A stretch of DNA of 50,502 bases from a virus. Below are positions 1 to 49,979 of the stretch, one piece after another. The notes below the pieces were generated by a model that ran no database searches, was not told the origin of the DNA, and saw only the letters and a program-made list of their open reading frames with translations. Made by a program: the position numbers and the translations under genes. The DNA is taken from positions 1 through 50,502 of IMG/VR virus record IMGVR_UViG_2806310411_000001, one strand, 5' to 3'. Numbering within the stretch: the stretch's first letter is position 1; each line of letters begins with the position of its first letter.

Positions 1-57
1 TGCCTTGAGGTGGCAGTGGGTAACACCGTGGGGGTTCGAGTCCCTCCGAGCGCACCA
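1..57 (+). tRNA. 3-prime portion of a class II tRNA, probably tRNA-Leu(GAG); attL core
   Basis: Anticodon stem TGCC/GGCA with 7-nt loop TTGAGGT (anticodon GAG, G37). Long variable arm. T-arm GGGGG-TTCGAGT-CCCTC. Acceptor 3-prime strand CGAGCGC plus A plus CCA. The 5-prime half would lie left of the window. Confidence 0.7.
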
Positions 58-58
58 A

Positions 59-70
59 ATTGAAATCATT
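59..70 (+). repeat. ATTGAAATCATT, candidate integrase arm-type site (left arm)
   Basis: The same 12-mer occurs at 50406..50417. Both copies are inside the prophage, next to the att core. Confidence 0.45.
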
Positions 71-165
71 CACAAAATTAGCGATTGTCGGGTCTGTCTG
101 TCGGGTGGGAATCGCGGACAGAAGGCGAACTTGGCGCGAAACCTGGTGCGAAACTCCGAGACTTG

Positions 166-378
166 ATGCCTGGGCCAGAACCGGGCATGCTGCGGCCCAT
201 GGTTGCACTGGATGACGTCCGCAAAGCCCGGGTCGAGAACGCGCACATCGCGCGGCTGGAAGAGCTGGTCGAGAACGTGCGCGCCACGCTGGCCGGGCCG
301 GCGAGCGATCGCGACAAGATCGGCTGGATAACCGAGCTCCTGAACGTCCAGGGCTACCGGATCGACGCTCCGGGCTAA
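166..378 (+). CDS. hypothetical protein (start uncertain; track ORF begins at 85)
   Basis: ORF 85..378. The first ATG is at 166 (MPGPEPGMLRPMVALDD...). It is convergent with the SprT-like gene and their stop codons overlap. Confidence 0.4.
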   Translation: MPGPEPGMLRPMVALDDVRKARVENAHIARLEELVENVRATLAGPASDRDKIGWITELLNVQGYRIDAPG

Positions 379-722: not shown

Positions 723-2788
723 TTCCGATACCTAGAACTTTCGAAGCCTGACGCCGCGATGGGAATGCCGCCGCCCCACGACGGAAGCTCGCACATGATC
801 TCCTCGTACTCAGATGCGGAGCCGAAATCTGCGTCGGCCTCAGACACGTTTTCATCGTGGCAAGTGAGAATGATCGGATAGTTATGCCGTTCGAGGCGCA
901 CCATCGCTTCGGCCAAAAAATCACGCGCGACGGCCTGGGTAGGTCCTTGCGCCAGATCCCCGCCATAGGTCGAGATGCGCGCCCACCGCGACGTGTTACT
1001 CTCGTCGGCCCATACAATCTTGCGGCTGTTGGAGACGTTCGGAACAGTCTTGAAGGTGACGGCGTCCTTCGTCTCACCCCAAGGCGTCTTGACCGGGTAG
1101 ATTTTCGGGTACGGAAAGCACAGCGCTCGCCCCGAAGGCAGTCGGCACCACAAAAAGGAGCCAACGACCTTGTAAGCCAATGGCCCCGCCGTGAAGACAT
1201 GGCCCGGTTTAGAGATCGCCTTAATCGCTGCGTTCTCGCAGTCGTACCAGAACTGCACAATTTCGGGGTTCTCTTGGCGCCAGGCCTTCTTAATCTCGTC
1301 GGCCTCGTCGTCGTCAATTTTGACGTTGTAGGTGTGGGCCATGGTCTGGAAAGCGCCTACACCGCCGCCGAAACCGCAGGCGAGCTCCGGGACCTTCCCG
1401 CGAACCTGTCGCTCGTCCTTTGTCACGTCCTCCGGTCGCTTGCGCAGGATCATCCCGGCCATGACCTTGTAGAGATCAGGCCCTTCGCCTCGGTCATATG
1501 CCCGAAAGGCATCGAGTTTCTTGCGCGCGCCCGCGAGCCAGGCGAGTACGCGTCCTTCGATGTTGCTAAAATCGGCGGCGACGATCTTCTTGCCGGCCGG
1601 CGCCTTTATGAGGCCGCGCAGAATGTACGAGAGGCACGACATCGGGGCATCGTACATGGCGTCGAGCGTATCGATCGCCTTTTGCGTCGGGTATTTGAGT
1701 ATGACTTCGATCGCGCCGTCGCAATCGAAGTCCTCCGGAGGGCGTTTCAGATTCTGAGGCTGGAACCGACGCCCTGCCCACCGCCCGGTGTTCGCCGCGT
1801 TGAACTGCAAGAGGCCCCGAGCTCGGCCGTCCGCGGACATGCCATTAAGAATAGCGTCGATCTTGGCCACAGACGCCTTGCCGGCCTCTTGCCGGAGCTC
1901 GAGCGCGCGCCGCACTGGCGGATCTAAGTGGTCTCGGGCGAGCATCTCTTCGACGAAGGTTTTGTCGAGAGTGTCGACGATCGCCATTGTCTTTTTGTCG
2001 AGCCGCGCTCCGAGAGTGACGCCGCGGCCTTTCAGCCAGACTTTCAACTGGTTCAGGTTGGTGCAGGCGCTCACCTCGTAGTCGGTGAGTTTGGCCATTT
2101 CCCTGTCGAGCTGGCGCTCTTGGTGTTCGACGATTTTCAACGAGCGTTGTGCGAGCTCGACGTCTACGAAAACGCCGCGAGAATTCACCCGTTGATCCAG
2201 GTGCCACAACGACTGCTCGAAAGGCCGGAGCGCCACGAGGCGCGCGCGGATCCCGCGCTCGACCTCGACGTCCGTGCGACAATAGGACCGTAACACCTCG
2301 ATGTCCTTCGGATCCTCTCGCCACAACAACGCCTCCGTCGGCTCGCCCTTCTTTGGCCGCCGCGGCTTCGACATGGCTAGCATGAGCCTTTTGCCGGCCT
2401 GGTCTTTGCCGATGTCCAGGCCGATGGCGCCAGCGGCGTTGTCCAAAGCGCCGGGCAGGGACATGGCGTAAGCCGCGACCATGCTGCAACGCCATTGCTC
2501 CATCTTGGGCATAGGCCAGCCGTACCGGGGGCCCATAATGTAGGTCCAGATCGCGATCTCGAAATTCGCGTTCCACGCTGCAATGATGCTGCCCGCGCGA
2601 ACATGCGCAGCTAGCCGCTCCGGCACCGGGTCTCCGCGGCCCCATACCTGAATGGGCTCGGCGTCGATGGCCCACGCAGCGCACCAGACATCCGTGTCCG
2701 CGTTCTCTGCGTAGGGGTAGACGCCAGTTTTCTTCAAATCGACGGGCGATCTGGTCTCGAAGTCGATCGTGAGGACTGAATTAGACAT
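719..2788 (-). CDS. Family A DNA polymerase with N-terminal 3-5 exonuclease
   Basis: Exo I motif TIDFETRS. Motif A ADFSNIEGRVLAWL. Motif B KVPELACGFGGGVGA. Motif C CHDE. The likely start is MSNSVLT at 2788; the track ORF extends to 2842. Confidence 0.9.
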   Translation of the reverse strand: MSNSVLTIDFETRSPVDLKKTGVYPYAENADTDVWCAAWAIDAEPIQVWGRGDPVPERLAAHVRAGSIIAAWNANFEIAIWTYIMGPRYGWPMPKMEQWRCSMVAAYAMSLPGALDNAAGAIGLDIGKDQAGKRLMLAMSKPRRPKKGEPTEALLWREDPKDIEVLRSYCRTDVEVERGIRARLVALRPFEQSLWHLDQRVNSRGVFVDVELAQRSLKIVEHQERQLDREMAKLTDYEVSACTNLNQLKVWLKGRGVTLGARLDKKTMAIVDTLDKTFVEEMLARDHLDPPVRRALELRQEAGKASVAKIDAILNGMSADGRARGLLQFNAANTGRWAGRRFQPQNLKRPPEDFDCDGAIEVILKYPTQKAIDTLDAMYDAPMSCLSYILRGLIKAPAGKKIVAADFSNIEGRVLAWLAGARKKLDAFRAYDRGEGPDLYKVMAGMILRKRPEDVTKDERQVRGKVPELACGFGGGVGAFQTMAHTYNVKIDDDEADEIKKAWRQENPEIVQFWYDCENAAIKAISKPGHVFTAGPLAYKVVGSFLWCRLPSGRALCFPYPKIYPVKTPWGETKDAVTFKTVPNVSNSRKIVWADESNTSRWARISTYGGDLAQGPTQAVARDFLAEAMVRLERHNYPIILTCHDENVSEADADFGSASEYEEIMCELPSWGGGIPIAASGFESSRYRK

Positions 2789-3320
2789 GGCGCCACGTCC
2801 TTCCGGCGCGCACGCCATTGATGCAGCTCCGCGAAACACCAAACATGTCGCCGAGGTCGTCCGAGCGCATGTGCGGGCGTTGCCGGATCGCGTGGACGTC
2901 AGCCTCGGTCAGAACCGCCATGGGGCATTGCTCACCGGCCAGGTGCGTTCCGTGCCGCTTCTTGTCGGCAATGTTGGCCTGGACTGTTTTGTAGAGCAGG
3001 TTGCTCGCCGCGCAATTCGCGGGACAGCCATCGTCGTGCGCCACCTGCATCCCGGACGGCCGCGGCCCGATGAAAGCAGCCGCAACCAGATTGTGGACCG
3101 TGTCGGCCTTGCGCTTGCCTCCTTTGTAAAGGTGCACGAGCAGATAGCCGTTGACATGCGGATGTTGGCTTAGAATCCGCTCGGGCTGAAACCGCGGCAG
3201 CGGATCGCCGAGTTTCGTCCTCGCGTATACCGTGCGGCCGACGCTCTTGACGCGCCCGAGATTCGACACCTCATAGAGGCCTTCGAAGCCGACAACGGGT
3301 TTCCAGATTTCCTCGGTCAC
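2781..3320 (-). CDS. NUMOD4/HNH homing endonuclease
   Basis: N-terminus WKPVVGFEGLYEVSNLGRVKS (NUMOD4-like), followed by an HNH_3-like core (NGYLLVHL...VHNLVAAAF). GTG start overlaps the upstream stop. Confidence 0.8.
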   Translation of the reverse strand: MTEEIWKPVVGFEGLYEVSNLGRVKSVGRTVYARTKLGDPLPRFQPERILSQHPHVNGYLLVHLYKGGKRKADTVHNLVAAAFIGPRPSGMQVAHDDGCPANCAASNLLYKTVQANIADKKRHGTHLAGEQCPMAVLTEADVHAIRQRPHMRSDDLGDMFGVSRSCINGVRAGRTWRHV

Positions 3321-42156: not shown

Positions 42157-43251
42157 ATGGCCGCACCTCGCATGATCCCGGACCTGAACCCGGCGTTGCT
42201 GATGAACTACCGGGCGGCGCGCTCGCTGAAGACGCGCAACACCCGCATCGGCTTCAACGGCGACAGCACCTTCGCCGGTGTCGAAACCGGTGGCACGACC
42301 GCTCAGGTCCTCCACTCTGTCCCGATGCAGGTTGCCGCGAAGCTTCAGGCCCGCGGCATCAACGCTGGGGCCAACAACCGCTTCGGCTGTGCCTCCGGCA
42401 CGTTCGCAACCCTTCTGACGATGGACAGCCGTGTCACGGCGACCGGCGCCTGGACGCAGGGCGCAACGACCGCCCAAGGCGGTCAGGCCTTCGCCTGCTC
42501 GGCGGCCGGCACTCTGAACATCGTCCCGCAGGGCAACGTCACCAAGGCCGACATTTACTGGCGCGACGGCGCTGCCGGTCGAAGCTTCAACTGGTCGGTC
42601 GACGGCGGTGCCACGACGCAAATCGACAGTACGGGCACGACGGCCATCAAGAAGACGACGGTGTCGCTTGGATCTTCCGCCCTGCACACGTTCTCGCTCG
42701 CGTGGGTCGCGGGCGCCGTGACGATCTTTGGCGTCGATTTCTACGACGACACGTCCAGCCGACGGGAGCTCTCGATCCAGCAGTGGGGCATCTCCGGCGC
42801 CACGTCGGCCAACGCGATCGACGACACGGACACGGTGACCGGCCGGCTGGCTCAGATCAAGTCCGGCAAGGCGTTGATGACCCCCGACCTGATGATTATT
42901 CGCTTGGGCGTCAACGACTGGCGCACTTCTGTTTCCGCGCTCTCGATGGTCGGCAACCTGACCACGCTCGTCACCACCTGCCAGGCGAACGCCTGCGACG
43001 TCATCCTCGTTACGCCCCGCTACGACGGCGGCTCGACTGGCCTGGCCGCTCAGCAGGAAGACTACGCCAATGCGATTCGCGCGCTCGGGCCAGTGTTGAA
43101 CGTCAACGTGCTCGACGCGCGTGCATACTTCGGTTCCTACGCGCTCGGCAACGCGGCGGGTTGGTACAGCGACACGGTTCACGGCGATACGGGCGGCGCA
43201 GGCTATGGCGAGGAAGCCGAGTTCTTCGTCAGGGCGCTGCTGACGGTATAG
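42157..43251 (+). CDS. SGNH/GDSL hydrolase (probable tail-associated polysaccharide esterase)
   Basis: Block I GFNGDSTFAG, block III-like GVNDW, and block V DTVHGD. Confidence 0.7.
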   Translation: MAAPRMIPDLNPALLMNYRAARSLKTRNTRIGFNGDSTFAGVETGGTTAQVLHSVPMQVAAKLQARGINAGANNRFGCASGTFATLLTMDSRVTATGAWTQGATTAQGGQAFACSAAGTLNIVPQGNVTKADIYWRDGAAGRSFNWSVDGGATTQIDSTGTTAIKKTTVSLGSSALHTFSLAWVAGAVTIFGVDFYDDTSSRRELSIQQWGISGATSANAIDDTDTVTGRLAQIKSGKALMTPDLMIIRLGVNDWRTSVSALSMVGNLTTLVTTCQANACDVILVTPRYDGGSTGLAAQQEDYANAIRALGPVLNVNVLDARAYFGSYALGNAAGWYSDTVHGDTGGAGYGEEAEFFVRALLTV

Positions 43252-43266
43252 CCAGGAGCATTTGGC

Positions 43267-43554
43267 TTACGACTGAGGGGCCGTTTCCGGCAACGTGATC
43301 GGGGTGAACGGTCCCATGTGCTTGAAGTAACCATCGGCCTCGCTCTGCCGATAGATGAAGCCGTCCTTGCTCTGCACAAATCCCTCGGCCAATCGCTGAG
43401 GAAAATCGCCGTGCCACTTACCGATCTCTGGATAGCAGGCTGAGCACAGCGGCTTGAAGTCCTCGGCGTAGTTGGCGTCCCTTTGCTGGCGCCAATAGCC
43501 GCCACACGCGGTGTTTTCAACAGAGCCGCATTTCGAGCACATATAGAGCGGCAT
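43267..43554 (-). CDS. zinc-ribbon-like Cys-rich protein (95 aa)
   Basis: Two CxxC pairs, CSKCG...CGG and CSAC. GGGAA ribosome-binding site. Confidence 0.5.
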   Translation of the reverse strand: MPLYMCSKCGSVENTACGGYWRQQRDANYAEDFKPLCSACYPEIGKWHGDFPQRLAEGFVQSKDGFIYRQSEADGYFKHMGPFTPITLPETAPQS

Positions 43555-43572: not shown

Positions 43573-43776
43573 TTATGTGCGCGCGGCTGCCACGTCGCCT
43601 ACCGTGATCTTGCCGGCGAGCATCAGCCGCAGAATGATTGCCACGGGCTCGGGTACGGAGCGCTCTCCGGCCACCCAACGGCGGGCGGTGCGCGGATCAG
43701 CTCCCACAAGTCTAGCCGCCCCGACCTGTGAAAGGCCGAGGCGGTCAATGGCGGCTTGAAATTGCTTAGGCGTCAT
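43573..43776 (-). CDS. small HTH DNA-binding protein (67 aa), Aca/antitoxin-like
   Basis: LGLSQVGAARLVGADPRTARRWVAGERSVPEP is a classic short HTH regulator pattern. It overlaps the upstream ORF by 11 nt. Confidence 0.6.
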   Translation of the reverse strand: MTPKQFQAAIDRLGLSQVGAARLVGADPRTARRWVAGERSVPEPVAIILRLMLAGKITVGDVAAART

Positions 43777-43951
43777 TGGTCGATTTCAGGATGTCGCGGA
43801 GACGATCGAAAGAGTCGGACGGAAGGTCAATCCGCTGGCCCTTCTCAGGGTTCCGAACAGTGGCGAATGCCCGCTCGCGCTGATCGTGGGCTTCGAAGAT
43901 GTTGATGAACCAGCCTTGTCCGAGATCATGGGTCTGCATTGCTCTCTCCAT
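43766..43951 (-). CDS. small hypothetical protein (57-61 aa), first gene behind the operator pair
   Basis: Track ORF. The alternative ATG at 43939 has a better GGAGAG site upstream. Confidence 0.5.
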   Translation of the reverse strand: MERAMQTHDLGQGWFINIFEAHDQRERAFATVRNPEKGQRIDLPSDSFDRLRDILKSTNDA

Positions 43952-43986
43952 CGCCGGGCAGGATTGCCCTTGCTGATGAACCTAAG

Positions 43987-44026
43987 ATAGGGCCAAACGT
44001 CCTATAGGGCAAGCGGTCCTATTATC
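43987..44026 (-). promoter_or_regulatory. two tandem palindromic operators ATAGG-N9-CCTAT abutting a GATAAT -10 box
   Basis: Operators at 43987..44005 and 44004..44022. The -10 box lies at 44021..44026, read on the minus strand. Confidence 0.55.
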
Positions 44027-44201
44027 ACGTATTGTTACATCTGGCCGTCATATCCTGCTCACGAGCGGCAGCCTGAACGAGGCTCGGCGGTATGCGCAGG
44101 TCACGACAGAGACCGGCGTGGTGCTTGGGGTCGGCCCCGGCGATCAGCTTGGCCAGCGCCTTGATGAACTCTCGGCGCCCGTCTTCTGTGTTCAGGTCCA
44201 T
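44025..44201 (-). CDS. hypothetical protein (58 aa, below the track cutoff)
   Basis: ATG at 44201 with GGAGG 7 nt upstream. MDLNTEDGRREFIKALAKLIAG... Confidence 0.4.
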   Translation of the reverse strand: MDLNTEDGRREFIKALAKLIAGADPKHHAGLCRDLRIPPSLVQAAAREQDMTARCNNT

Positions 44202-44204
44202 CGT

Positions 44205-44540
44205 CTATCCTCCGGTCTCACGAACACCATTCGGGACCGGCAGGGCACTCCCCTCCGCGTCGCAGTGGTCCTCGTCTGGCTCCAGCTTTTGCGGATTCTC
44301 CCGCCAGTATTCGTAGGTCCGCTGATCAGCCTTGCGGGGCTTGAGATAGTGCGGCATCTCCCAGACCGCGCCGCAGTGCTGGCACTTCACCGTGTAGGCG
44401 AAGTATCCGTCGAAGTGGTTGTGGGCGCCGCATTCGCAATGGAAGTCCATGCACACGTCGGTGCCTTTCCACTGGATAAAGGCGTGGGTTTCCTCTGGGC
44501 TGCCCTCGTCGATAAAATCTGGCATGTTCTCATCTTTCAT
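44205..44540 (-). CDS. Cys/His-rich hypothetical protein (111 aa)
   Basis: ATGA overlap with the upstream peptide gene. DVCMDFHCECGAHNHF...CQHCG. Confidence 0.5.
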   Translation of the reverse strand: MKDENMPDFIDEGSPEETHAFIQWKGTDVCMDFHCECGAHNHFDGYFAYTVKCQHCGAVWEMPHYLKPRKADQRTYEYWRENPQKLEPDEDHCDAEGSALPVPNGVRETGG

Positions 44541-44629
44541 GAGCGGCGGGCTGTATTGCCGGCGACCCAGCCAAGGGCAAACATCACAAAGCACGCGAAC
44601 AGCAAAAGCACGATTTGATCTATAGACAT
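44537..44629 (-). CDS. 30-aa transmembrane peptide
   Basis: MSIDQIVLLLFACFVMFALGWVAGNTARRS. AGGAA ribosome-binding site. Confidence 0.35.
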   Translation of the reverse strand: MSIDQIVLLLFACFVMFALGWVAGNTARRS

Positions 44630-44651
44630 CTTCGGTTCCTTGTCATGTGCT

Positions 44652-44873
44652 TCAGTCTGTTGGATCTTGATATGGCTCCAACGGAGCCATGCTGCCTGGC
44701 TCACGGCCTCCCCACATGTCGAAATATGCGTTCCCGACAAAGCCAGCGACGTGGGCTAGGGCGTAGAACAGCTTGCGTTGTTCTTGGTCGGTCTGCCTCT
44801 CCGCGTGCTCCTTGATCATGCGGCCGGCGCCAAGCCAAGCCTTGGCGTGCATGCCCAAATCATCTCGATTCAT
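44652..44873 (-). CDS. hypothetical protein (73 aa)
   Basis: Track ORF with GGGAG upstream. Confidence 0.5.
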   Translation of the reverse strand: MNRDDLGMHAKAWLGAGRMIKEHAERQTDQEQRKLFYALAHVAGFVGNAYFDMWGGREPGSMAPLEPYQDPTD

Positions 44874-45108
44874 TTTCGTCTCCCGTTTTCATTGCCCGGA
44901 TTGTAGCCGCGATCTTTTTGCGGGCCTCCTCGCGCCCGGTGTGCCGCGCATGAGTGCCATACGCCGGTAGCGACGCTAGCTCTGCGGCTCTCGCGCACCT
45001 CTCGATGATCTCGTTTCGGTGCCTTTCCTGTTCCTCGCAATAGCGCTCGTATGCAGCGCCGCCCTCAAAGGACGGGTCCCCGGGCTGTTCATATCCAGTG
45101 GTAGTCAT
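44860..45108 (-). CDS. hypothetical protein (82 aa)
   Basis: Track ORF with AGGAG upstream. Confidence 0.5.
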   Translation of the reverse strand: MTTTGYEQPGDPSFEGGAAYERYCEEQERHRNEIIERCARAAELASLPAYGTHARHTGREEARKKIAATIRAMKTGDENESR

Positions 45109-45260
45109 TTCCGTCTCCTGATGGCATTGCGGCTGGTTATCATCTTGTAGCCGTCCTCAAATTCGACGCAGCAACTGTTCATTCTTCCGCGCGCCGTGAC
45201 CCGGCAAAAATGGCCTTTGCGCCCTTGTCGATTCCAGAAGTAGACATAGGGGAAATCCAT
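45105..45260 (-). CDS. small basic Cys-containing protein (51 aa, below the track cutoff)
   Basis: MDFPYVYFWNRQGRKGHFCRVTARGRMNSCCVEFEDGY... ATGA overlap with the next gene. AGGAAG ribosome-binding site. Confidence 0.4.
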   Translation of the reverse strand: MDFPYVYFWNRQGRKGHFCRVTARGRMNSCCVEFEDGYKMITSRNAIRRRK

Positions 45261-45295
45261 GGGCGTAAGCACTTCCTATAGAACCGGCTGTCCGG

Positions 45296-45490
45296 TTACG
45301 GCCGCCAGGTTCCTTCGACGAGCTCGAACTGTCGCGCGATGTATTCCTTCGGCGCGTCGTTCTCGAGCATATCCAGCGTGAAGAACAGCCGCATGCGCGC
45401 GGTCGGGTCCTTCTCGGCGCGCGCCTGAGAATCGAGCGCGCGAGCGCCCGCGGAACGTGGTTTCGCCCTTCGTGAACTCAAGGTTCCCAC
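45296..45490 (-). CDS. hypothetical protein (start uncertain)
   Basis: Track ORF with a GTG start next to the divergent control region. An internal ATG would give a 32-aa product. Confidence 0.3.
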   Translation of the reverse strand: MGTLSSRRAKPRSAGARALDSQARAEKDPTARMRLFFTLDMLENDAPKEYIARQFELVEGTWRP

Positions 45491-45501
45491 CTTGTCGAAA
45501 A

Positions 45502-45550
45502 TGTCTGGTTATGAGATGATAGTGACCAGACAACGTATTTGCAAGGGGAC
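45502..45550. promoter_or_regulatory. inverted repeat TGTCTGGT-N15-ACCAGACA followed by ATTTGCAAGGGGAC, upstream of the lysis cassette
   Basis: Arms at 45502..45509 and 45525..45532. The second motif is at 45537..45550. It sits between divergent gene sets. Confidence 0.55.
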
Positions 45551-45554
45551 TTTC

Positions 45555-45785
45555 GTGAAGCTGATCGAAAACGCGTGGGAGGACCTCCACCGCCTATGGT
45601 CGATCCGCGCCTCGATCATGCTCAGCGTGTTCCTCGGCGTGTCCGGCCTCCTGGCCGCCTTCGTCGACACCGTGAACCCATGGGTGCTGGTCGGCGTCTC
45701 GATGGTCCTCAACGGCCTCGTCATTCCGATCCTGCGCCTCATCAAGCAGCGTGAGCCGGCGCCAGCCGCGGAGCCCGAAGCATGA
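45555..45785 (+). CDS. putative holin
   Basis: GTG start. Hydrophobic segments follow LHRLWSIRASIMLSVFLGVSGLLAAF. ATGA junction with the endolysin gene. Confidence 0.55.
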   Translation: MKLIENAWEDLHRLWSIRASIMLSVFLGVSGLLAAFVDTVNPWVLVGVSMVLNGLVIPILRLIKQREPAPAAEPEA

Positions 45786-46360
45786 GCGTCAAAAAGACAG
45801 CCGGCTATACCGGCTCGGCGGCCGTGATCGCCGCCACGGTGGCTTTCCTTCCGGCCTGGGAGGGCATGGACGCCGTCGCCAAAAAGGACATGATCGGCAC
45901 CGGCCACCCCGTGACCTACTGCTATGGCCAGACGGCCGAGTTCGGCAAGGTCAAGGAAGGCACGCGGTTCACCAAGGCCGAGTGCGACCAGAAGCTGGCC
46001 GAGAGCCTGCCGAAATATCTCGAGCAGATCCAGCCGTGCATCAAGGTCCCACTGCCGGTGAAGACGGAAGCGTCGCTCGTCGATGCCGCCTACAACGCCG
46101 GCCCGCGCGCGGTTTGCCGCTCCCCGATGCTGGCCAAGATGAACGCGGGCGATCTCGCTGGCGGCTGCCGTGCCTTCAGGGGCTGGTACACGCGCTCCGA
46201 CGGGCAGGAGCGGCGAGGGCTCATCGCGCGCCGTAGCGGCATCGGCGACGGCCGCAAGAGCGAGATGGCGCTTTGCCTCGAGGGCGTTGCGGAGGGGCTG
46301 CCGAAGCCGCCCGCGCCGGCAAAGCGGTCGTGGTTCGCATGGCTCTGGAAGCAGAAATGA
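45782..46360 (+). CDS. GH24-type lysozyme with an N-terminal SAR-like anchor
   Basis: Weakly hydrophobic N-terminus GSAAVIAATVAFLPAW, followed by an EG...D...T catalytic pattern. Confidence 0.75.
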   Translation: MSVKKTAGYTGSAAVIAATVAFLPAWEGMDAVAKKDMIGTGHPVTYCYGQTAEFGKVKEGTRFTKAECDQKLAESLPKYLEQIQPCIKVPLPVKTEASLVDAAYNAGPRAVCRSPMLAKMNAGDLAGGCRAFRGWYTRSDGQERRGLIARRSGIGDGRKSEMALCLEGVAEGLPKPPAPAKRSWFAWLWKQK

Positions 46361-48505: not shown

Positions 48506-49077
48506 ACGGCCTAAAGGCGCCTCCGAATGGGTGCGAGGAGGCATCAATCCTCTCCACGGTTAGCTACATACCGTGTGGCGCGCCCGCAGTGGCGGTTGTC
48601 GGATGGAAGGGACGAAGCGATTCACCCATCCGTATGTGCGAGCAATGCGAATGGCACAACGTAAAGAACCGCGGCGGGTATCGAGTGGAAGCTTTTCTCG
48701 CACCGACCAATGAACCCAAGGCCGACCCGCTCCGCACTCCCGGCTACGTCGCCAAGAAATTCGGCGTAGCCGTCCCCACCGTCCGCTATTGGATCGCGGT
48801 GGAATTGTTGACAGTTGAGACCAGGACGCCGGGCGGCCACGCCCGCTTCCGTGACAGCGAAGTGGAGCGGTTATGGCGAGACCTCGACGCGAAGAACCGG
48901 TGCTCAAAAAGCGGGAAAACGGCATCTGGTACGCTACCTGGTACGACGGCGGCCTCAAGAGAGAACGCCGTCAAAGTCTGGACACCCGCGACCACGCCGC
49001 CGCGGCCATCAAGTTCGCCGAGTTCCTCGTCAAAGGACCCGACGATCCCCGCGTCCGTCCCAGCGTTCCTGGACTGA
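48502..49077 (+). CDS. Cys-rich N-terminal domain plus MerR/excisionase-type HTH (Xis-like); the 3-prime 205 nt overlap int
   Basis: PGYVAKKFGVAVPTVRYWIAVELL...GGHARFRDSEVERLW is an HTH_17-like pattern. The N-terminus carries CEQCEW. Confidence 0.55.
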   Translation: MNGLKAPPNGCEEASILSTVSYIPCGAPAVAVVGWKGRSDSPIRMCEQCEWHNVKNRGGYRVEAFLAPTNEPKADPLRTPGYVAKKFGVAVPTVRYWIAVELLTVETRTPGGHARFRDSEVERLWRDLDAKNRCSKSGKTASGTLPGTTAASRENAVKVWTPATTPPRPSSSPSSSSKDPTIPASVPAFLD

Positions 49078-49979
49078 GCAAGCCGACGGTCGAGCAGGTG
49101 CTCGACTGGTACGAGAAGGACCACGTCAACGCAGCCGAGGGGCCAGTGGCCAAGGAGCGCCAGCGCTATGCGATCGCGGCCCTCAAATCCTTCTTTCGAG
49201 ATCGTCAAATCGCCGACGTCGACATCGAGCTCTCCCGTTCTTATCGAGTTGCCCGCCTCAAAGGTCTGGTCGGTGAACGTGGGCGTTGTGTCGGAGTTGC
49301 CACCGTTCGGCGCGAGCTTGGTGTCCTGGTTGCCGCCGCCAACCACGCCCGCGCGTGGAAGCGCATTGGCCATGACGAAATGCCGTCGGTCGAGCTCCCG
49401 ACCGAGGCCGGCGCGCACGAGAAGAAGCCGTGGCTGACGAAGGCCTCGATTCGCCTGGCGCTCGAGAAGGCCGAGGGCGACCTGCGCGACTTCATCCTGT
49501 TCGCCTATTATTGGGGATCCCGCCGGCAGGCCATCGAGCAGCTTCGGAAGGGCCAGATTGACCTCCAGCACGGAACGGTCGATCTGCACCCGCCCGGAGC
49601 CCGCCGGACGAAGAAGCGCAAGCCGGTCGTCCCGATCTACCCCGAGGTCCGGCCCGCGCTGGAGCGCCGCCTGACGGCCGCGAAGGACTATCTGTTCCCG
49701 GCGCGCAGCCACCAGGCCGGCCGCGACTACGCCGACTTCTACGACGCGTTCAAGACCCTTTGCGACCGGCACGAGATCAAGGCGGTGGACGCCGTGGACG
49801 ACGTCCCATGGCCGCACCTCCTGCGGCACTCCCGGGCCACCCACATGCTCATGGACGGCGAGAGCCTCTACAAGGTGGCCAAGCTGCTCGGCGACACCGT
49901 GGCGACCGTCGAGCGCGTCTACGGGCATCACAGCGTCGAATTCCTGGCGACGCAGTCGAACGTGGAGGAGGTGGCCTAG
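48873..49979 (+). CDS. int: tyrosine recombinase / phage integrase
   Basis: N-terminal ENGIWYATWYDGG, a HLLRHSRATHM box and a VERVYGHH box containing the catalytic Tyr. Confidence 0.9.
   Translation: MARPRREEPVLKKRENGIWYATWYDGGLKRERRQSLDTRDHAAAAIKFAEFLVKGPDDPRVRPSVPGLSKPTVEQVLDWYEKDHVNAAEGPVAKERQRYAIAALKSFFRDRQIADVDIELSRSYRVARLKGLVGERGRCVGVATVRRELGVLVAAANHARAWKRIGHDEMPSVELPTEAGAHEKKPWLTKASIRLALEKAEGDLRDFILFAYYWGSRRQAIEQLRKGQIDLQHGTVDLHPPGARRTKKRKPVVPIYPEVRPALERRLTAAKDYLFPARSHQAGRDYADFYDAFKTLCDRHEIKAVDAVDDVPWPHLLRHSRATHMLMDGESLYKVAKLLGDTVATVERVYGHHSVEFLATQSNVEEVA

Follow-up and report, generated by a model that had tools for sequence, protein, structure and literature searches.

We examined a minus-strand operon on a virus sequence of 50,502 nucleotides (nt) (IMG/VR record IMGVR_UViG_2806310411_000001, positions 1 to 50,502; hereafter the window, meaning the whole of that stretch) and find that it is probably an autoregulated accessory-gene operon of the anti-CRISPR (acr-aca) type, whose regulator would belong to a previously undescribed Aca-like family of helix-turn-helix (HTH) proteins. 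We put the probability of this reading at about 0.6. Reading along the minus strand (...TGTAACAATACGTGATAATAGGACCGCTTGCCCTATAGGACGTTTGGCCCTATCTTAGGTTCATCAGCAAGGGCAATCCTGCCCGGCGATGGAGAGAGCAATG...), a promoter/operator block is followed by a cargo open reading frame (ORF) of 57 amino acids (aa), an overlapping gene for a 67-aa HTH protein and a gene for a 95-aa zinc-ribbon protein. An earlier note on this DNA had proposed an acr/aca-like architecture here, with a small protein and an HTH protein behind tandem operators in an accessory slot. Every feature that it listed (a GATAAT hexamer, two palindromes, the ORFs, their 11-nt overlap and the zinc-ribbon gene) was found in place, and the proposal itself is strengthened by a conserved frame around a hypervariable cargo, by co-variation of the recognition helix with the operator, and by Aca10 as the nearest relative.

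We fetched 56 metagenome and 26 IMG/VR loci, plus more through exact-protein look-ups, giving about 105 related loci in all (referred to where necessary by L numbers), and searched a promoter/operator nhmmer profile in 85 sequences, comprising 84 fetched loci and the window. Of the 85, 55 have the block ahead of the HTH gene and in the same orientation, and represent 44 unique modules; in many of the loci without it, a contig end cuts the block off or the HTH has diverged. Its consensus is TGTAACAwTTCGTGATnATAGGGCCnnTTGcCCTATAGGgCnnnTgnCCTAtnTT...CATCAgCAA. Mean identity to the window is 69% (maximum 82%) over the 50-nt operator/promoter core, compared with 55% for shuffled sequence, and 73% over the HTH gene; over the cargo region it is 51%, compared with 57% when shuffled. 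The gene just upstream of the HTH gene encodes a different protein in nearly every locus, usually with an ATGA overlap at the HTH start, and the 56 cargo ORFs of the 44 modules, which hold one to three each, group into 51 BLASTP families. What lies downstream of the HTH gene also varies by locus, a result rechecked with the collection's own gene calls, and the window's neighbouring small genes (58, 129, 73, 82, 55, 64 and 95 aa) are without homologues throughout the related loci. Conservation is confined to the promoter/operator block and the HTH gene, with a hypervariable slot between them.

The palindromes noted earlier as tandem operators, each of 19 bp (43987..44005 and 44004..44022), hold up well under this comparison, the pattern being both unique to this locus within the window and conserved across the related loci. 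Their cores are two abutting 17-bp sites of the form TAGGRC-N5-GYCCTA, which we designate O1 and O2. This pattern has two matches in the 50.5-kb window, both of them here, where 0.04 would be expected and none of 100 shuffles reached two, and the repeats are therefore not a product of chance. Across loci, O1 appears as TAGGGCC-N4-GCCCTA or, in what we call type B modules, as a half-site with TTGACA, and both promoter subtypes, like distant HTH lineages (L072, L002, L079, L054 and L083), keep O2 as a full palindrome.

Aligning the modules also locates the promoter. Type A modules have a TGTAACA element, then a full O1 with TTGCCC or TTGACC in its right arm, then O2; type B modules have a TAGGGCC half-site, TTGACA, the full O2 palindrome and then TATAnT. 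The −35 position accordingly reads TTGCCC, TTGACC or TTGACA, always 17 nt from TAnnnT and with O2 filling the spacer, and the −10 position reads TATATT, TATAGT, TACATT, TAGTTT or TATGTT, with T1, A2 and T6 retained in most loci. Some loci have near-consensus promoters, for example TTGACA-17-TATAGT. We infer that the window's own promoter, TTGCCC-N17-TATCTT, lies inside the repeats: the −35 falls under O1, the spacer and −10 under O2, so that a repressor bound to both sites would cover all three. Transcription is predicted to start near 43977, where the conserved CATCAGCAA begins. The GATAAT hexamer (44026..44021), which had been taken for the −10 box, is probably a wrong assignment, since it has no −35 at a usable distance (TGTAAC, the sole conserved upstream hexamer, is only 8-9 nt off) and is poorly conserved, reading GATGAT, GATTGA, TTACTA or GATACT at other loci. 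It is TTGCCC-N17-TAnnnT that is positionally kept instead.

Upstream of the operators, type A modules of many loci share TGTAACAwTwCGTGAT, present once in the window, beyond which the sequence is not conserved; a second regulator might bind it, or it could be an UP-like element. Three of the loci, L006, L048 and L057, have it as a perfect palindrome, GTAAC-AATTC-GTTAC. Two other loci carry a GIY-YIG homing-endonuclease-like ORF at an identical point inside the conserved promoter (L017 at about 1995..2330 and L027 at about 45..350; HTH on the plus strand). The insertion follows the left arm of O1 and TTG, and a second −35, O2, the −10 and the leader lie beyond it. The conserved operator appears to act here as a target for homing. 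A distant member, L083 (45% identity), has a second TAGGGC-N5-GCCCTA pair 1.2 kb upstream of the promoter-proximal site (1759..1790 and 2924..2940), which suggests control of a second operon, as has recently been proposed for several Aca families. An Rfam scan gave no known RNA family above threshold at the operator or leader; a Hammerhead_1 match at 43967..44007 on the plus strand stayed below it (E 0.2; 18.8 bits, where the gathering score is 34), and the palindromes almost certainly produced this match by chance.

The recognition helix of the HTH protein and the operator were compared across lineages. HTH proteins with RRW-type recognition helices (mostly ..RT.RRW) and a detectable site nearly all have TAGGGC/TAGGAC half-sites, even at 45-60% identity, the two exceptions having TAGGCC and TATCGA. 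Two lineages with RTSQGW and RTSHGY helices have TACGCA-N5-TGCGTA plus TTGCGTATACGCAA on an unchanged scaffold, and keep the TGTAACA element and the CATCAACAACGGAG leader. One further lineage, with KAARNW, has TAGGCA-N5-TGCCTA. The changed residues are those that align with the contact positions of Aca10. Since helix (RRW to QGW, HGY or RNW) and half-site change together, this analysis shows, at the level of sequence, that HTH and repeats belong together as a cognate pair.

The HTH protein itself is stand-alone. Its AlphaFold2 (AF2) model (pLDDT 96) has five helices spanning essentially all 67 residues and no additional domain. Translational coupling to the cargo gene is likely, given the 11-nt overlap between the cargo stop and the HTH start and the lack of a separate Shine-Dalgarno sequence for the HTH gene. 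There are 159 close homologues at 67-89% identity, nearly all from soil and freshwater metagenomes, and a profile search returned 659 clusters at 50% identity (E <= 1e-10). Among 50,697 GenBank phage records only Bradyrhizobium phage ppBeUSDA76-2 carries the HTH, where it is labelled hypothetical and the gene before it is unannotated; the same element is also a resident prophage of B. elkanii. The family also occurs on IMG/VR contigs, plasmids give 35%-identical matches only, and the family is almost entirely phage-borne. By both sequence and profile, the top PDB match is Aca10 (7XI5; phmmer E 0.0046, profile E 9.8e-4). Of the residues that experiments have defined as DNA contacts in Aca10, Q22 and Q37 align with the invariant Q17 and R32 of the HTH here, and R44 with the nearly invariant R39. 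Foldseek matches comprise the C-terminal domains of HigA2 and MqsA, Aca2 (34%), Aca10 (33%), Aca1 and C-proteins, as well as the 434 and P22 repressors. Pfam gives an Xre-like-HTH match (E 0.015) and NCBIfam sub-threshold MqsA and HigA matches; DUF1870 was not found in Pfam at E <= 1.

The cargo of the window is a small protein in which no motif had been recognised, a description that empty searches of family, structure and fold collections bear out. Two starts are available to it, and the 57-aa version is the more likely to be true: judged from the leader, ATG 43939 sits behind GGAGAG, and the public collection's gene call is likewise 57 aa. We rejected the 61-aa version, as its prefix 'MERAM' is the conserved leader and ribosome-binding site common to unrelated genes. 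No match was found for the 57-aa protein in Pfam, PHROGs, NCBIfam, PADLOC or PDB sequences. Its AF2 model (pLDDT 80) has four beta strands and a C-terminal helix, for which a Foldseek search of the PDB gave no match (best E-value 0.8), and weak PDB matches to HU and GFP were judged spurious. Only three homologues exist among 5.8 billion proteins, sharing the motif TxDLGxGW...TVRNPxKGQRIDLP. The closest (63% identity, L086) lies in a similar module, with TTGACT-cATAGGGCGGTTGGCCCTATCGT, a second cargo gene and a divergent HTH; the other two have different contexts, and cargo homologues also occur without the window's HTH. One of these, 53% identical (L088, 100..165), follows the short leader type TTCATCAACAATGGAGC with different repeats upstream (TTTGATC...), which hints that cargo and leader can move between promoters with different operators. 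Among 39 cargo proteins from other loci we found one GIY-YIG domain, one weak DUF4926 match (E 0.006) and a few PHROGs of unknown function, and no toxin or defence family in Pfam, PHROGs or PADLOC; two other cargo families had no PDB relatives by sequence search. Using the HTH as bait for guilt by association, as had been suggested, showed that unrelated small genes are swapped beside it; no known Acr was found among the cargo searched.

Another way to view the slot is through its leader, the 5' untranslated region (5'-UTR) between promoter and cargo. A leader of the form GCAAGGGCrATyCTGCCCGGC stands ahead of unrelated cargo genes in 24 of the 44 unique modules, with one copy in the window where none is expected, and the other 20 have a shorter leader, CATCAACAACGGAGC, from which the hairpin is absent. 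In the window the hairpin stem is extended by GC/GC and CAUC/GAUG pairs, and the predicted RNA fold has an energy of −14.8 kcal/mol (z = −2.2). The stem arms repeat the operator half-site core AGGGC/GCCC, with a spacing of GGGC-N6-GCCC in the hairpin versus GGGC-N5-GCCC in the DNA operators. Apart from three changes of A-U to G-U the inner stem does not vary, and pairing in the outer stem reaches only 80%, for which reason covariation cannot separate an RNA role from a DNA role. Following the leader, GGAGAG, 4-7 nt and ATG are conserved whatever the cargo, which is why naively called ORFs begin 'MExxM'. The conserved hairpin and the constant position of the start codon match the layout published for the Aca1, Aca2, Aca10 and Aca12 operons (Feussner et al., NAR 2026, PMC13551039), in which a DNA motif lies over the promoter, a hairpin comes just past the point where transcription begins and the start codon keeps its place; of these proteins, only Aca2 and Aca1 have been shown to bind RNA. 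A tentative extension, which we regard as considerably less likely than not to be right in full, is that the slot is under two control layers, with the same HTH binding GCAAGGGCAATCCTGCCCGGC as RNA or as a third DNA site, with the promoter/leader and the HTH gene serving as homology arms, and with more than 50 families of inhibitors, aimed largely at non-CRISPR defence, captured by phages of the Bradyrhizobiaceae. Such a two-layer slot would combine transcriptional with translational repression, a combination demonstrated to date only in Aca2 and Aca1.

Taken as an acr-aca-type operon, the module would work as follows. Upon entry of the phage genome the sigma-70-type promoter would fire, giving a transcript that covers the 57-aa cargo, the translationally coupled 67-aa HTH and probably the zinc-ribbon gene. 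The accumulating HTH protein would then bind as a dimer to the two abutting 17-bp repeats and block RNA polymerase, with the operon falling to a low level, also in the prophage. Phages would swap unrelated small genes in and out of the slot, with the promoter block and the HTH gene as its conserved frame, and the cargo would most likely inhibit a host defence system, not necessarily CRISPR-Cas. The comparison establishes the anatomy, the pattern of conservation, the pairing of HTH and operator and the kinship with Aca10, Aca2 and HigA-type HTH proteins, and conservation, promoter geometry and protein-DNA co-variation give the regulatory half of the model good support. We infer repression, dimer binding, the exact hexamers and the transcription start; the anti-defence role of the cargo is conjectural, and an anti-CRISPR function specifically is unsupported.

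Several observations weigh against this reading. Each operator of the window has one imperfect arm pair (TAGGAC vs GCCCTA), compared with the perfect TAGGGC-N5-GCCCTA of homologous loci, and the promoter hexamers match at 4/6 each (8/12 together), which is why a consensus scan is silent on them. No terminator was predicted ahead of the module, and read-through from upstream is therefore possible. The classes with altered specificity comprise three lineages only, and the figure of 51 cargo families is an upper estimate, since some cargo ORFs are probably false frames in high-GC DNA. With regard to the HTH, only borderline homology links it to Aca10 (22 bits, confined to residues 11-41 in the HTH core), and the fold matches the HTH domains of the antitoxins HigA2 and MqsA as well as it does Aca proteins. 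No known Acr was found among the cargo (39 proteins by Pfam, PHROGs and PADLOC, three families by PDB sequence and the window's cargo by fold). As no cargo resembles a known Acr or anti-defence protein, the anti-defence role rests on architecture and neighbourhood.

The main rival keeps the same self-repressed design and changes only the nature of the cargo, which would be morons (genes for lysogenic conversion, superinfection exclusion or host takeover) rather than inhibitors of immunity. We consider this unlikely, while giving it more weight than the other rivals. The phage is temperate, as judged from its integrase, and the module is found in a resident B. elkanii prophage; the cargo has no detectable function, and a lower-GC island of small genes is typical of moron loci. 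Feussner et al. (2026, PMC13551039) note that competitive factors of other kinds may be among the genes under Aca control. Against it, no cargo matches defence or exclusion models in PADLOC, and the combination of roughly one family per locus with a tightly conserved promoter and repressor is the pattern documented for anti-defence loci. The arrays of related phages also speak against morons. On the same strand these carry an Acb2/Tad1-hairpin protein (PF24729, E 9.7e-17) and a SLOG/YAcAr protein (PF10686, E 1.3e-20), together with S-adenosylmethionine (SAM)-dependent and N6/N4 DNA methyltransferases, and are consistent with anti-defence islands, which is guilt by association and nothing more.

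Alternatively, the HTH might be a general phage regulator, Cro/Ner-like or C-protein-like, which targets other genes and has the upstream gene beside it incidentally. Its fold does resemble those of C-proteins and of the 434 and P22 repressors, the family is large (659 clusters), and L083 has its second operator pair 1.2 kb away. The distribution of the operator makes this improbable, however: the 50.5-kb window has the pattern at the promoter of the HTH itself and nowhere else, and the loci searched, L083 apart, have it only within 800 nt upstream of the HTH gene and on the same strand. The module moreover sits in an accessory island far from any immunity or early-regulatory region, and in the window it is not followed by a gene for a restriction endonuclease or a methyltransferase.

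The weakest rival, which the earlier note had offered as its alternative and which we consider very improbable, is a type II toxin-antitoxin pair in HigBA/MqsRA order, with the upstream ORF as toxin and the HTH as the antitoxin that represses the promoter: the gene order, overlap, palindromic operators and autoregulation are all typical of higBA/mqsRA, and the C-terminal domains of HigA2 (TM 0.79) and MqsA are among the best folds, with the Pfam and NCBIfam matches given above pointing the same way, but one HTH lineage (67-89% identical) faces about 50 unrelated partners, in one to three genes per locus, which is incompatible with specific neutralisation, the 67-aa HTH is a DNA-binding domain only, lacking a HigA2-like N-terminus or MqsA-like zinc domain, none of 39 cargo proteins matches a toxin family (RelE/HigB, MqsR, PemK and others; Pfam and PADLOC), and homologues of the window's cargo are also found without this HTH. 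The acr-aca-type operon is the preferred reading.

Table. Positions of the operon's features, of flanking genes in the window and of accessory-array genes in related loci (window coordinates unless a locus is named).
Feature	Position	Strand	Description
Conserved upstream element	44024..44039	-	TGTAACAATACGTGAT; adjoins O1; overlaps last codons and stop of 58-aa ORF
Operator O1 (predicted)	44005..44021	-	TAGGACCGCTTGCCCTA; inverted repeat, 6-bp arms, 5-bp spacer; −35 within right arm
Predicted −35	44012..44007	-	TTGCCC; inferred from conservation
Operator O2 (predicted)	43988..44004	-	TAGGACGTTTGGCCCTA; fills promoter spacer, overlaps −10
Predicted −10	43989..43984	-	TATCTT; inferred from conservation
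Conserved 5'-UTR element	43953..43973	-	GCAAGGGCAATCCTGCCCGGC; holds hairpin GGGCA-AUCC-UGCCC (43956..43969)
Ribosome-binding site for cargo	43944..43949	-	GGAGAG
Cargo gene	43766..43939	-	57 aa; 61 aa if begun at ATG 43951
HTH gene	43573..43776	-	67-aa stand-alone Xre/Cro-type HTH, predicted autorepressor
Zinc-ribbon gene	43267..43554	-	95 aa, CxxC...CxxC; 18 nt past HTH stop; phrog_11861 (unknown function)
GDSL esterase	42157..43251		Flanking gene
Holin	45492..45785		Flanking gene
Lysozyme	45782..46360		Flanking gene
Integrase	48873..49979		
Accessory-array genes	L096 4027..4272; L094 5430..5807; L095 7595..8293; L098 6800..7378; L103 1031..1939		Acb2/Tad1-hairpin, SLOG/YAcAr, methyltransferases

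The integrase gene (table) marks the element as a temperate phage or prophage. Its host is a soil bacterium, probably of the Bradyrhizobium group, to judge from three carriers: the phage in GenBank, the prophage of B. elkanii and a metagenome-assembled genome (MAG) of the Bradyrhizobiaceae. The large terminase of the element has only 38% identity to that of the nearest sequenced phage. Consistent with the placement of the operon in a lower-GC island between the tail and lysis genes, as described earlier, GC content is 59-61% over 43-46 kb, compared with 65-70% in the upstream tail genes, and the flanking gene calls agree. Six more small ORFs (64, 55, 82, 73, 129 and 58 aa) lie upstream of the module on the same strand (45296..44025, minus strand), with no family assignment for any of them, and the sequence TTGCAA-17-TATCAT (45544..45516) resembles a promoter divergent from the holin gene. 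The cysteine-rich 129-aa protein, encoded two genes upstream (44205..44594, minus strand), matches the Lar restriction-alleviation family (PF14354) only weakly, with an E-value of 0.099 that falls far short of the threshold; no further matches were found, nor any homologue in the related loci.

Downstream of the HTH gene, no terminator was predicted before the zinc-ribbon gene, which is probably co-transcribed with the module. The earlier note had listed it as following the HTH, and so it does in the window; as a member of a conserved three-gene unit it fails, for it stands downstream of the HTH in none of the related loci. Its 15 homologues sit in other small-gene arrays without the window's HTH, and it is thus the next variable gene.

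The significance of the module, if our reading is right, is that the HTH and its operator would form a new Aca-type anchor family in phages of soil bacteria of the Bradyrhizobium group. Such an anchor points to some 50 families of tiny unknown proteins, which would make a candidate list for anti-defence screens in agriculturally important hosts. The natural specificity variants, in which helix and half-site change within one scaffold, would provide material for studying how HTH proteins are retargeted, and the leader would be a further test case for the recently proposed action of Aca proteins on leader RNA hairpins. Conceptually, a known design is extended here and not a new one revealed. A literature search found no paper on the module or on phage ppBeUSDA76-2, and a search on CRISPR prevalence in Bradyrhizobium gave nothing usable.

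Compared with known systems, the module shares tandem palindromic operators over its own promoter and a small Xre-type HTH with the restriction-modification (R-M) controllers C.Kpn2I and C.EcoT38IS, which are dimeric proteins. C genes, however, precede the endonuclease that they control, whereas here the regulated genes are upstream, tiny and of unknown function, and no R-M gene (endonuclease or methyltransferase) is found in the window's operon or its immediate neighbours. With HigB2-HigA2 and MqsR-MqsA it shares the order of small gene first and HTH second, overlapping genes, palindromic operators and autorepression (predicted here), and the HTH domain of HigA2 gives the best Foldseek E-value. 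Identity to HigA2 and MqsA is only 18-20%, the HTH here is without a toxin-neutralising extension, and its partner is not conserved and includes no toxin-family cargo.

Aca2, from the acrIF8-aca2 operon of phage ZF40, shares the HTH core (34% identity, rmsd 1.0 over 55 columns), and Aca1 of JBD30 gives a TM of about 0.65-0.72; in both systems, as here, two inverted repeats (IR1 and IR2) overlap the promoter, unrelated upstream genes are swapped between mobile elements, and a hairpin resembling the DNA site lies just after the predicted transcription start. Aca2 differs in being a DUF1870 protein of ~116-125 aa with a C-terminal dimerisation domain, of which the HTH here covers the N-terminal half (TMt 0.42), and since the HTH has no DUF1870 match it is not of the Aca2 family. 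Aca10, with 65 aa, acts as a dimer on a 19-bp palindrome that overlies its acr promoter (PMC9410881). Its operon (acrIC7-acrIC6-aca10 of Pseudomonas citronellolis, 7XI5) likewise has a stand-alone HTH (65 aa vs 67 aa here) of similar fold (TM 0.72-0.83, rmsd 1.2 over 52 columns, 33% identity), with the regulator gene last, behind one or two small genes, and with two inverted repeats over the promoter, the functional one being the 19-bp palindrome ATA...TAT; a 5'-UTR hairpin is predicted for it too (PMC13551039). The Aca10 operator differs, being a 19-21-bp palindrome, ATACGCTCATTGAGCGTAT (PMC9410881), in place of ATAGGGCC-N3-GGCCCTAT here, the model here has a fifth, C-terminal helix, the carriers are alphaproteobacterial soil phages rather than Pseudomonas elements, and no validated Acr is linked to the HTH family here. 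With respect to the Aca class as a whole, a neighbouring validated or homology-supported Acr was not found among the cargo searched; a small HTH in an operon with small genes on a phage, inverted repeats over the promoter and varying partners are all present. Thus, while membership in none of these families is demonstrable, we conclude that the module, to judge from its genes and regulatory sites, resembles the operons of Aca10, Aca2 and Aca1.

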